Shown in pieces: positions 44,293-46,776 of a DNA stretch of 47,453 bases (positions within the stretch are counted from its first letter, which is position 1; each line of letters begins with the position of its first letter). This DNA comes from an uncultured Campylobacter sp. (GTDB lineage: Bacteria > Campylobacterota > Campylobacteria > Campylobacterales > Campylobacteraceae), in assembly GCF_938045465.1 (NCBI RefSeq), contig NZ_CALIBF010000034.1:1-47453 (forward strand), read 5' to 3'. Below the pieces are notes generated by a model, which did no database searches, was not told the DNA's origin, and saw only the letters and a program-made list of their open reading frames with translations. The translations under genes and the position numbers were made by a program.

Positions 44293-46776
44293 TTATCCGC
44301 AGACTACTTCCTCAAAGCTCTTTATCTTGCGCTCTATTTTGCGCTGCGTAGCTTGCGCGTTTAAAATTTCATCGCTCAAAGCTGCGTTAGAGTTCAAACT
44401 TTTAGCTCCTTTTAACGCAGCATCTATTAGCCTGCTTTCGTTATTCGCCGCTTGCGGCTTAGGCATTGCGGCGGGCTTTGCTTCTACCATGCGCACTATC
44501 TGCTCAAAATCCGCCCGATGTGCGATCGATGCAGCGTCCATCTGCTTTTTGGTCTCTTTTAGGCGCTTATTAAATAGCTTTTGCGCGCTTTTAGCCTCCT
44601 CGGCGCTTACTCCCTCATCCAAATCGAGCGTAGAGGCGACACCGATAAATTTATTATCCTCGCTCCATAAAAAGCACTCGTTTATATTATTGACGTTTTT
44701 GCTAACCCATACGCGCTCAAGCCCGTACATCTCCACGCTGTAAAACCTCACACCATCTAGGCTAATGCCTTTTTTATGCACGTGTTTCAGCTCTCGTCCG
44801 CCAAGACGCGCGCTGATGCTTAGAGCGTCCATATACACAGCATCGCCTATCTTTGCGCTATACGCAGCTGCGCAGGTAGTATCAAGGCGCTCAAGGTAGC
44901 GGGTGTTTAGAAATTTTTCCGCATACATATCCATGAGCTCTTGCACCTCGCTTAGATTTTTGAGCCTTGTTAAATTTGTCTTGTAGCCTCTTTTTAATCG
45001 GCGCTCTTTTTTAGAGCGAAAAAACTCTATAGCTTGGCGCTGCGAGATATTATGACCGATGAAGCCCGCCAAATTTGCACTGAAACTATGCTGCAAGGCT
45101 CTAAAATTTCGCTCTACGTAGGGCTTTAGCCAGCCGCTATAAGCACGCACGGCTTTATACTCGATCTCAAGCGCGCCTAAGACTTCGCGCATATACTCGC
45201 TCTTGAAAGCTTTGCCGTTATCGCCCTTGATTATCTTTGGCTTGCCGTATCGCACGATATATTTAGCGACGGCTCTAGCGATGCAGAGAGAATTTTCACT
45301 ATCGCTGATGTGAAAAGTCGCTACTCCGCTATACGTATCGATTAGGGCAATGATGGTGTAGCGCTTTTGCCACTCTTTGACATAGTTTTGAAATTCGTCT
45401 TTGTCCTTAAAGATAGTGCTAACGTTTTGCCAGCCGATGAGATCGCAAAGCTCGCTAGCGTTGCAGATTAGATCAAGCGGGCTGCCGTCTATCTCCACGA
45501 CTTCGTTTATCGTATTTACGGCGTAGTTGCTGATACCAAGAGCAGGCAAGCCGCGGCCGACCGCTCCATCCTCGCCGTAAAGGATGATGTTTTTTACCAG
45601 CTTGTTTTTGCTTAGGTAGTTGTTTACGAAGCGATTTACGACCTCATAGCTTACTATCTCGTCTCTTTTGCCTTGAAAATCCTCGAAGTTTATGAGAGAA
45701 TTTTTTACCGCGTGGTAATTTAGCGCCTTGTAGATGTTTGTTATATCTACCTTGCCCATACCGCCACATGCGAGTATCAGTTCCACGCAAAGCGGCGCAA
45801 GACCTAGCGCGTCAAGCTTTAGGGTCTTATTATTATCCCGCTCGTCCACTAGCGCGTCAAGGCCTCCTTTCTTAAATTTACGTTGCCAGTCGTAGAGCTT
45901 ATTTGCAGTTACTTTTACGCAGCATATCTTTCTAGCGTTGATATACTCCAGAAAAGCGGCCTCGCCGATCTTGCCTTTTGCGTCTTCCCATGCCTTGATT
46001 ACGTCGTATTTTTCAAACGCGGCCTTGCGTTTTTTGTCCGAGCAAGTAGCGATAGCGGGCAAATTTGCGGCGCTCGAAGCGCTTAAATTTAGCCCGTCAC
46101 TCTCTACTACCTCGCACTCTACCGCCTCGTCTTTGACGGCTATGCCGTTTGCGCCTCTTTGGCTCTCGCCCCCAGCCTGAAGCCGTAGACCCCGTTGCTC
46201 GTTATTCGCACATTCGTAAACCCCATCTCTCGCATACGCATCGCTATATGCTTTTGCTTCTCCTTGCTCATCGTCTTTTGCGTATGAGCTATCGCTCGCG
46301 TCGCTTCTTTGGTTACGTCCATCGCTTCTATTTGCATCGTTTACCCTTTCGTTTTGATTTATTTGCGTCTGCTCTTGATCTCGTCGATCACCTGTACTAG
46401 CGAAGCCAGCGCCAAAAACGCCATCGTTACCGCTCCAAATATCGACACTATCGCTAGCGTCCAACTTAGTATCTCCATTGCTCTCTCCGTTAGTGAAATT
46501 TAAGAGGCGGGCGCGGGCGTCGTTTTCCCAATTTACCCTAGATGCCTTGCCCGCCTGTGAAATTTCGCTGTTTTTACTGTTGATCAGGTCGTCGTCGATC
46601 CAAATTTGGAGAGTTTTACCGCCGCGGCCGATACCGTCGGTGTATGTAAAGTGGCATAAATGACACTTAATAGTGCAAAATTTTTTACAGCTTTTTGTGG
46701 CTCGAAAAGCGGCTTTTTCCACGCTTTTGTTATTTACACCCAAAATTTCAGCGGCCTGCTTGGAATTTACCCACAT
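44293..46776 (-). CDS. MuA-like DDE transposase
   Basis: N-terminal Mu-type DNA-binding domain (GRGGKTLQ); EIDGS, GDNGKAF, KPYVERNF catalytic triad. Confidence 0.95.
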   Translation of the reverse strand: MWVNSKQAAEILGVNNKSVEKAAFRATKSCKKFCTIKCHLCHFTYTDGIGRGGKTLQIWIDDDLINSKNSEISQAGKASRVNWENDARARLLNFTNGESNGDTKLDASDSVDIWSGNDGVFGAGFASTGDRRDQEQTQINQNERVNDANRSDGRNQRSDASDSSYAKDDEQGEAKAYSDAYARDGVYECANNEQRGLRLQAGGESQRGANGIAVKDEAVECEVVESDGLNLSASSAANLPAIATCSDKKRKAAFEKYDVIKAWEDAKGKIGEAAFLEYINARKICCVKVTANKLYDWQRKFKKGGLDALVDERDNNKTLKLDALGLAPLCVELILACGGMGKVDITNIYKALNYHAVKNSLINFEDFQGKRDEIVSYEVVNRFVNNYLSKNKLVKNIILYGEDGAVGRGLPALGISNYAVNTINEVVEIDGSPLDLICNASELCDLIGWQNVSTIFKDKDEFQNYVKEWQKRYTIIALIDTYSGVATFHISDSENSLCIARAVAKYIVRYGKPKIIKGDNGKAFKSEYMREVLGALEIEYKAVRAYSGWLKPYVERNFRALQHSFSANLAGFIGHNISQRQAIEFFRSKKERRLKRGYKTNLTRLKNLSEVQELMDMYAEKFLNTRYLERLDTTCAAAYSAKIGDAVYMDALSISARLGGRELKHVHKKGISLDGVRFYSVEMYGLERVWVSKNVNNINECFLWSEDNKFIGVASTLDLDEGVSAEEAKSAQKLFNKRLKETKKQMDAASIAHRADFEQIVRMVEAKPAAMPKPQAANNESRLIDAALKGAKSLNSNAALSDEILNAQATQRKIERKIKSFEEVVCG
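46140..46337 (-). CDS. 65-aa protein nested in the +1 frame of the transposase
   Basis: AAAGGG-6nt-ATG; MQIEAMDVTKEATRAIAH... Confidence 0.6.
   Translation of the reverse strand: MQIEAMDVTKEATRAIAHTQKTMSKEKQKHIAMRMREMGFTNVRITSNGVYGFRLGARAKEAQTA
46359..46478 (-). CDS. 39-aa single-TM protein nested in the +1 frame of the transposase
   Basis: GGAG RBS; MEILSWTLAIVSIFGAVTMAFLALASLVQVIDEIKSRRK. Confidence 0.6.
   Translation of the reverse strand: MEILSWTLAIVSIFGAVTMAFLALASLVQVIDEIKSRRK

Follow-up and report, generated by a model that had tools for sequence, protein, structure and literature searches.

Introduction

Genes lying wholly inside other genes are known from several viruses. In the spanin pair Rz/Rz1 of phage lambda, a small gene is contained in a longer one that is read from the same strand; it uses the +1 frame and a start of its own, and both products are made. 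Embedded genes are likewise known in phiX174. Here we describe what is very probably a further case, in a contig of 47,453 nucleotides (nt) from an uncultured Campylobacter sp. (NZ_CALIBF010000034.1, assembly GCF_938045465.1; genome 2.19 Mb, 47% G+C), which was analysed over its whole length and is called the window below. In its right-hand part the window carries a Mu-like prophage of a showae-group Campylobacter, and the gene for the MuA-like transposase of this prophage holds, in the part that encodes the linker between its N-terminal DNA-binding domain and its DDE core, two small open reading frames (ORF1 and ORF2) which comparison with relatives marks as selected, overprinted coding genes.

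Like the embedded gene of the Rz/Rz1 pair, ORF1 and ORF2 are fully enclosed by a longer phage gene, are read from its strand but in the +1 frame, and have starts of their own. Unlike that fixed functional pair, nested genes of the present kind have a transposase as host, are restricted to its linker, stand two to three in tandem and are exchangeable as cassettes. In hepatitis B virus the spacer of the polymerase, a disordered tether, is overlapped by preS, and selection acts mainly on the overlapping gene. There as here, a tolerant tether between the domains of a replication enzyme hosts a gene in a shifted frame and needs only to stay open, but the animal virus has one fixed overlap, whereas the bacterial transposable phage has several alternative cargo modules. 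Transposases of the IS3/IS1 type are made from orfA and orfB by programmed -1 frameshifting, and the boundary between their DNA-binding part and their DDE core is, as in the present family, the site of frame play; two copies of our locus (L067 and L068) reproduce the IS3-type layout. In the window, unlike IS3/IS1, both domains share one frame and no shift is needed, and the other frame holds independent genes, each with a Shine-Dalgarno (SD) motif and an ATG; parts in different frames that call for a -1 shift were found only in L067 and L068.

A further likeness is to phage morons and accessory hotspots, such as the anti-CRISPR loci of Mu-like Pseudomonas phages, where orphan genes, small, varied and equipped with translation signals of their own, replace one another in related phages at a single position with conserved flanks. 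The known hotspots lie between genes; the site in the window is part of a coding sequence, and the frame of that sequence has to remain open. Another transposable phage, the Mu-like Pseudomonas phage Fc02, has small overlapping genes in its regulatory or early region, olg1/olg2 and gene 10, one of them with superinfection-exclusion activity (PMC9936078). The Fc02 genes differ from those of the window in lying upstream of the repressor, after ner and outside the transposase, and the likeness is one of description only (PMC9936078). A full-text search of the literature, judged from its result listings, turned up no paper that describes genes nested in a transposase of Mu type. Embedded genes themselves being known, what is new here is that the overprinted genes form a modular array, open to exchange and limited to the linker between two domains of a transposase.

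Results and Discussion

Anatomy and conservation of the nested ORFs

ORF1 and ORF2 are on the transposase strand and in one shared frame, each behind an SD-like motif (Table 1), and the transposase frame passes through both without a stop, as a single ORF of 827 codons that joins the N-terminal domain to the core. This arrangement had been claimed by a sequence-only reading of the window, and the ORF list and the sequence bear it out. A +1-frame TAA stands seven codons upstream of the ORF1 ATG, and ORF1's own TAA stands seven codons upstream of the ORF2 ATG, so that each ORF needs its own initiation. No promoter-like site was found directly before the nested ORFs in a consensus scan of 43300..47453. 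ORF1 is hydrophobic (grand average of hydropathy 1.03; best Kyte-Doolittle 19-residue window 2.37), with a conserved hydrophobic stretch followed by a basic tail, DEIKSRRK in the window, of which DEIKSRR is invariant across copies; small single-pass membrane peptides are recognised by one hydrophobic segment, some 20 residues long or longer, with charges on either side of it, and we predict ORF1 to be such a peptide, of roughly 40 residues. ORF2 is basic (isoelectric point 10.4; 12 K+R vs 6 D+E). A single transmembrane segment in the one product and a basic character of the other had been part of the same reading, as had the polar nature of the linker, which is rich in A, D, G, S, N and E in the MuA frame, with only 15% I, L, V, F, M and W over residues 93-242.

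Eight further copies of the locus were available as DNA, L058-L062 from genome contigs and L063-L065 from a metagenome scan with ORF2 protein alignment; a scan of viral contigs for more relatives found none. In all nine sequences, window included, both +1 ORFs are intact and wholly inside the transposase gene, on its strand, in another frame and with the host frame uninterrupted. Start and ribosome-binding site are conserved as well: both ATGs are kept in 9/9 copies, AAAGG(G/A) precedes ORF2 in 9/9, and in the eight copies listed the shared ATG of ORF1 follows a run of purines of the GGAG or GGGG type (the ORF1 call of L059 begins at an earlier ATG, and the same internal ATG is present). Out of 43 alignment columns of ORF1, 27 are invariant and the changes in the rest are conservative (A/G, V/A, M/V, I/V/L, K/R); read in the MuA frame, the substitutions are radical (W/R, S/G/R, D/A, F/L). 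ORF2 is conserved over its core, residues 23-65, from MS(E/K)EK through the YGFR motif to the C-terminus.

Searching 5.8 billion proteins with transposase residues 85-235 returned 171 MuA proteins that carry the window's linker, all of them at least 454 amino acids long and each with an open MuA frame. In the 120 proteins listed among these, linker identity is 58-85% and length mostly 830-860 amino acids; the signature left in the MuA frame by the ORF1 overlap is present in 97 of the 120, and that of the C-terminal half of ORF2 in 114. The first half of ORF2 occurs as two alleles, one in 51 and the other in 65 of these proteins. An extra insert is found in 16, a signature of another cassette (cassette B, below) in two, and one resembling a further module (module C, below) in three.

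Selection in the two frames

The distribution of changes over codon positions is inverted in the overlap. Minimum changes in five sequences at MuA codon positions 1/2/3 number 11/6/4 in the ORF1 overlap and 26/12/11 in the ORF2 overlap, compared with 31/28/54 in the N-terminal part of the gene, a control that is not overlapped; with this excess at position 1, constraint is weakest where the nested frame has its wobble base. Counted in the nested frame over all nine sequences, changes at positions 1/2/3 are 8/7/13 in ORF1 and 35/27/51 in ORF2, which together (43/34/64) compare with 41/35/64 for the N-terminal control in its own frame (six sequences), a profile that reads as that of an ordinary coding frame.

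The ratio of nonsynonymous to synonymous substitution rates (omega, by the Nei-Gojobori method) agrees with this. In the ORF1 overlap omega is 0.29-0.38 for the nested frame and 0.82-1.08 for the MuA frame, and in the ORF2 overlap 0.05-0.25 and 0.81-2.68, respectively, the MuA value being undefined in either overlap where the synonymous rate is zero. In the N-terminal control the relation is reversed, with 0.80-3.38 for the +1 frame and 0.17-0.36 for MuA. Pairs with L062 give about 0.7 in both frames over the whole of ORF2, because the first half is a different allele there; over the C-terminal half they give 0.19-0.23 for the nested and 1.8-1.9 for the MuA frame. The mark of purifying selection passes from the MuA to the nested frame just where the two overlap, and the direction and size of the shift are unambiguous. 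That this is selected dual coding, as the sequence-only reading had supposed, is what the intact ORFs in 9/9 copies and the switch of purifying selection to the +1 frame argue for. Changes at codon positions were also worked out indirectly from the 120 MuA proteins, where position-1-type replacements stand at 20:14, 48:32 and 32:15 in the overlap and at 50:40 and 39:48 in controls; the enrichment is only mild and the derivation too indirect, and we do not count it.

A number of observations weigh against taking ORF1 and ORF2 as genes. The DNA copies are few and related, L059 and L060 being near-identical in the cassette and L058 and L061 in ORF1, and amount to fewer than nine independent observations; the same relatedness affects the omega values, whose standard estimation is moreover biased in overlapping frames. 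For the first 22 or so residues of ORF2 there are two alleles that bear no relation to each other, and the structure model has this part disordered, for which reason the functional start of ORF2 may be the internal Met23. Neither ORF has a significant match in Pfam, PHROGs, PADLOC or phage genomes; the nested proteins appear to be orphan families known only from the nested context, and any function given to them is a guess. No RNA run is listed for the stretch, and no run held more than 0.15 of its sampled words. For ORF2, scoring by codon usage gives the +1 frame no advantage (d = -0.03 per codon). Finally, when linker residues 93-242 were resampled synonymously 20,000 times with the codon usage of the genome, a +1 ATG-ORF of at least 65 residues arose in 83% of trials, and both ORFs (at least 65 and at least 39 residues) in 27%.

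Within the window alone, the nested ORFs are not beyond chance. The +1 frame is poor in stops because codons with T in second place are rare in so polar a linker, and the +1 peptide is hydrophobic because of GNT codons, the second position of the nested frame being the wobble position of the host; anything more than chance emerges only through comparison with relatives. All this would suit a compositional by-product, that is, a +1 frame open for free with ORFs that are untranslated and non-functional, the more so as junk-looking +1 ORFs in the linkers of L002 and L041 are equal candidates by codon usage. For that reason we dropped as evidence the score of a frame log-odds model of codon usage, for which 624 long ORFs from the genome were the training set and which puts the nested ORFs in the top 0.3-6% of 1,138 background +1 ORFs. 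A by-product, however, does not explain an omega of 0.05-0.38 in the +1 frame next to about 1 or more in the MuA frame, nor the excess at MuA codon position 1, nor the retention of ATGs and SD cores in 9/9 copies, nor a nested protein shared at 38% identity by two distant transposases (module C, below), and we regard it as very unlikely.

The host frame and its linker

The transposase matches its PHROG family from residue 240 onwards (Table 1), and in Pfam it stays below the curated cut-offs for both rve (29.4 bits, E=1e-6, vs 32.6) and Mu-transpos_C (15.9 bits, E=0.014, vs 21.7), domains that its relatives carry as precomputed assignments (PF00665 and PF09299). At the other end, a block MW..S..A..L...GRGGK.LQIW is conserved in all homologues and marks the N-terminal domain. 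A linker of about 150-180 residues joins this domain to the DDE core. The linker is polar and probably disordered: an AlphaFold2 model of full-length MuA (mean predicted local distance difference test, pLDDT, 46) has no secondary structure over residues 64-235, at pLDDT 21-31, although the N-terminal domain of this model is also below 50, which leaves the disorder only weakly supported by it.

One could suppose that the N-terminal domain and the core are separate proteins with the small ORFs as ordinary genes between them, the open MuA frame then being meaningless. The almost neutral evolution of the MuA frame in the overlap would fit such a split, as would PHROG and Pfam matches that begin only at residue 240, and one lineage (L067/L068, below) is in fact split. 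Yet the frame is open in 9/9 copies of the window's cassette (cassette A), in 3/3 of cassette B, in L010 and L061 and in the 171 called linker proteins of at least 454 residues, and short-linker relatives join the same two domains directly. Moreover, when the nested proteins are resampled synonymously, the MuA frame is stop-free in only 12% (ORF1) or 18% (ORF2) of cases; that it is open in all cassette-A copies despite this suggests that read-through is also selected. A split transposase is hardly credible, and the host frame in the overlap appears to be one selected only for being open.

Exchange of cassettes in the linker

The sequence-only reading had proposed that homologues be compared for variable nested cargo with the frame preserved, and the relatives display both. 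The linkers of G003, G006, G034 and G035 are very different from that of the window, while their cores are 95-97% identical to its own; G029, with a core 90% identical, again has quite a different linker. In those of these five genomes where the gene is complete, the open frames are 522-747 residues long, against 829 in the window. Helicobacter prophage homologues are likewise single ORFs, of 724-877 residues, yet with other linkers. Neither in the Helicobacter homologues nor in the short-linker relatives L005-L007 does the linker hold a convincing nested ORF.

The limits of the cassette in the window are given by G029, G074 and G075, which match only positions 1-137 and 545-621 of the query and have 210 nt of unrelated sequence in between; a DNA search over all 78 genomes of the genus found the window's cassette in none but its own genome. 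The unrelated sequence is cassette B, which has the same left junction as the cassette of the window and encodes a 63-residue +1 ORF behind AAAGGAG, with the MuA frame open in 3/3 copies. Five substitutions separate these copies, four of them synonymous in the nested frame and nonsynonymous in MuA, and the fifth, a K/R change, the reverse. Tandem arrangements also occur. L061 (1523-2131) has three tandem +1 genes, namely ORF1, ORF2 and a module C, with their own SD motifs and spacers of 24 and 12 nt, and cassettes B and A stand in tandem in P0048 and P0101 (903-927 residues). Module C of L061 encodes 80 residues behind AAAGGAG; the linker of L010 has a 74-residue +1 ORF behind AAGGAG that is 38% identical to it (E=5e-17), although L010 has a different N-terminal domain and a core only 35% identical to that of the window. 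The MuA frame is open in both L010 and L061. P0024 and P0094 have the window's linker joined to a different N-terminal domain. These two proteins and the tandems of B and A suggest that modules are shuffled at both ends of the linker.

Outside the genus, L015 (734-937; genome G043, of another genus of the order) has a more distant Mu-like transposase whose N-terminal domain is followed at once by a 68-residue, helical-looking +1 ORF with GAGGAGAGAGGGG in front of it. This ORF is a single copy, with no second one among nine genomes of that genus.

We give about even chances to the broader reading that the linker in the Mu-like transposases of Campylobacter is a dedicated cargo bay, exchangeable by recombination, for one to three small +1 genes of at least four families (A1, A2, B and C) that were born there de novo or live only there. 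If this reading is true, transposable phages of this kind have a hidden hotspot of accessory genes inside a coding sequence, and with it a natural nursery of genes.

An open MuA frame in homologues had also been expected, and this stood for the copies of cassettes A and B, for L010 and L061 and for the 171 proteins, but not for one lineage with module C, that of G073 and G084. There (L067:1222-1722, and L068) the frame of the N-terminal domain runs straight on into module C and ends after 166 residues, and for the core only the -1 frame is open, beginning at position 1476, just upstream of the module C ATG. With one difference in 879 nt, L067 and L068 are one lineage; no canonical slippery heptamer was seen in them by eye, without a scan. 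They may represent a dead copy that has suffered a frameshift, or else an orfA/orfB layout as in IS3, dependent on a -1 shift.

This layout keeps alive, for that lineage only, the idea that nested frames are reached by ribosomes which start on the transposase and shift into +1, giving the N-terminal domain alternative regulatory tails in the manner of IS3 OrfA/OrfAB. In the window the positions of the stops demand that such a shift take place within 21 nt for ORF1 and put ORF2 out of reach, each ORF has its own conserved SD motif and ATG, and the single near-identical lineage that has the N-terminal domain in frame with module C and the core only in -1 may be no more than a dead copy. As an account of ORF1 and ORF2, frameshifting is most improbable, and we return to them as separately initiated genes.

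The nested proteins

An AlphaFold2 model of ORF2, from an alignment of ten sequences, has a disordered N-terminus, a helix at residues 25-37, a hairpin at 40-46/49-54 and a second helix at 57-64, with a mean pLDDT of 61 and values of 72-81 in the three 10-residue blocks that cover residues 21-50; Foldseek found no match to it in the PDB at E<=0.001. ORF2 is accordingly described here as a basic 65-residue protein of predicted alpha/beta fold.

Modules B and C, like ORF1 and ORF2, have no significant match to a Pfam, PHROG or PADLOC family. The best PADLOC match, to AbiEi (E=0.014, 13 bits), was taken as chance. In tblastn against phages the best match of ORF2 is at E=3, and module B has none. 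That ORF2 match is to a gene annotated as HicA-like and is the sole trace of such a toxin, neither Pfam nor PADLOC giving a HicA match, and identity with HicA is not supported. For DUF3874 (PF12990) the ESM Atlas gives ORF2 a score of 0.94 with 170 shared features, a mere lead that hmmscan, at E up to 10, does not bear out. Among 401 genomes of the order, ORF2 finds only its own locus at E<0.01; its profile finds, in 1.84 billion representatives, only P0123 and P0124, both of the same family. For module C, a search for free-standing homologues yielded no candidate, and a search at the level of the order, whose draw held only two genomes of the genus, yielded none. The absence of homologues outside the nested context would fit birth by overprinting in the linker, without proving it.

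A rhodanese-repeat protein, P0125, matches ORF2 at E=9e-4, which we consider a chance resemblance of a common structural motif. The match covers ORF2 residues 27-50 (window 46143..46337, minus strand) and consists of a helix, EMG(F/Y)TNVR and a strand, a helix-strand unit that is repeated in P0125.

A model of expression and function

Under this reading of ORF1 and ORF2 as genes, the early promoter at 47031..47003 would drive one transcript after induction or infection. Ribosomes that start at 46776 would make the transposase through a tether indifferent to its sequence, and others, starting at 46478 and 46337, would produce the predicted membrane peptide and the small basic protein of alpha/beta fold, each nested ORF being translated from its own SD motif and ATG and the two being arranged like a tight operon. 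Both the translation of the nested ORFs and its timing after induction or infection are inferred.

What the products would do is a matter for tentative suggestion. Size, orphan status, cassette-like exchange and early position would place them among early accessory proteins, in host takeover, exclusion or counter-defence; that they are accessory proteins of the moron type, acting on the host or on competing phages, with ORF1 in the inner membrane and ORF2 as a binder, is possible but rather doubtful. ORF1 would then sit with its N-terminus outside and its basic tail inside, and ORF2 would be a small binder of nucleic acid or protein. The main alternative role may be the tuning of transposition; in a more speculative vein, internal initiation and elongation on the same RNA may interfere and so set the level of transposase.

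Where a gene is nested in a longer one and uses another frame, gene callers leave it out. Among the 5.8 billion proteins ORF1 had been called only twice (P0126 and P0127), and ORF2 twice among cluster representatives, vs 171 linker-bearing transposases; on this showing, current annotation would be blind to an entire class of early proteins from phages of human-associated Campylobacter. The locus would also be a clean natural example of the evolution of overlaps, in which a disordered tether gives up constraint on its sequence and takes in genes that are new or mobile, and selection switches frame, to a measurable degree, within one ORF. The long, variable linkers of other transposases and replication proteins may hide cargo of the same sort, possible exclusion or anti-defence factors included, and both the de novo origin of overprinted genes in linkers and the tuning of transposase dosage by nested translation can now be tested.

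The prophage around the transposase

The genes around the transposase are those of a Mu-like phage (Table 1): a repressor-like gene, a promoter, a small first gene, the genes for transposase A and the B ATPase, Gam and head genes of Mu type. The repressor-like gene is divergent from the early operon and truncated by the end of the contig. The candidate early promoter, upstream of the 60-residue gene and the transposase, is the sole site with 12/12 matches within 43300..47453. It matches the extended -10 sigma-70 consensus perfectly; the repressor-like gene and the early operon diverge on either side of it, and 47003..47031 is likely to be the early promoter/operator region. The 60-residue gene has no significant match in Pfam or PHROG; the same gene precedes the transposase in L064 and L067, and it presumably holds the position that ner has in the gene order of Mu. 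The ATPase gene is the next one downstream of the transposase, and beyond the Gam-like gene follow genes for terminase, portal, minor head, protease, major head, tail and tape-measure proteins. Near the Gam-like gene, in the early or middle region of the prophage, there is a PAPS-reductase-like gene.

Table 1. Positions of the nested ORFs, the host gene and neighbouring prophage features in the window
Feature	Position	Strand	Basis or remark
Nested ORF1, 39 aa, ATG start	46359..46478	-	+1 frame relative to transposase
SD-like motif GGAGAGAG	46481..46488	-	6 nt before ORF1 ATG
Nested ORF2, 65 aa, ATG start	46140..46337	-	+1 frame relative to transposase
SD-like motif AAAGGG	46344..46349	-	6 nt before ORF2 ATG
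Variable cassette inside linker	46077..46483	-	flanks common to G029, G074, G075
MuA-like DDE transposase, 827 aa	44293..46776	-	phrog_310 transposase, E=1.1e-54, residues 240-793
N-terminal DNA-binding-type domain of transposase, residues 1 to about 62	46591..46776	-	conserved block in homologues
MuB-like AAA+ transposition ATPase	43367..44233	-	phrog_296 DNA transposition protein, E=2.3e-66; Pfam AAA_22, E=9e-20
60-aa gene, first in early operon	46778..46960	-	ORF list
Candidate early promoter, TTGACA, 17 nt, TG-TATAAT	47003..47031	-	consensus scan, 12/12 matches
Repressor-like helix-turn-helix gene	47048..47452	+	PHROG transcriptional repressor/regulator families, best E=3.6e-18
Mu Gam-like gene	39873..40361		E=9.8e-36
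PAPS-reductase-like gene	38637..39428	-	phrog_424, E=2.3e-34

Within the transposase core there is also an arginine-rich ORF of 48 residues in the +2 frame, with a TTG start (45644..45790, minus strand), which recurs in several relatives at 35-48 residues; its codon score is like that of the background (z = -0.27), and it is probably not a gene. At the other side of the prophage, an elongation-factor-like host gene (14176..15978, plus strand) and a tyrosine-integrase-like gene (16175..17047, minus strand) lie to the left of the phage tail genes, and the left end of the prophage is probably between about 17 and 19 kb.

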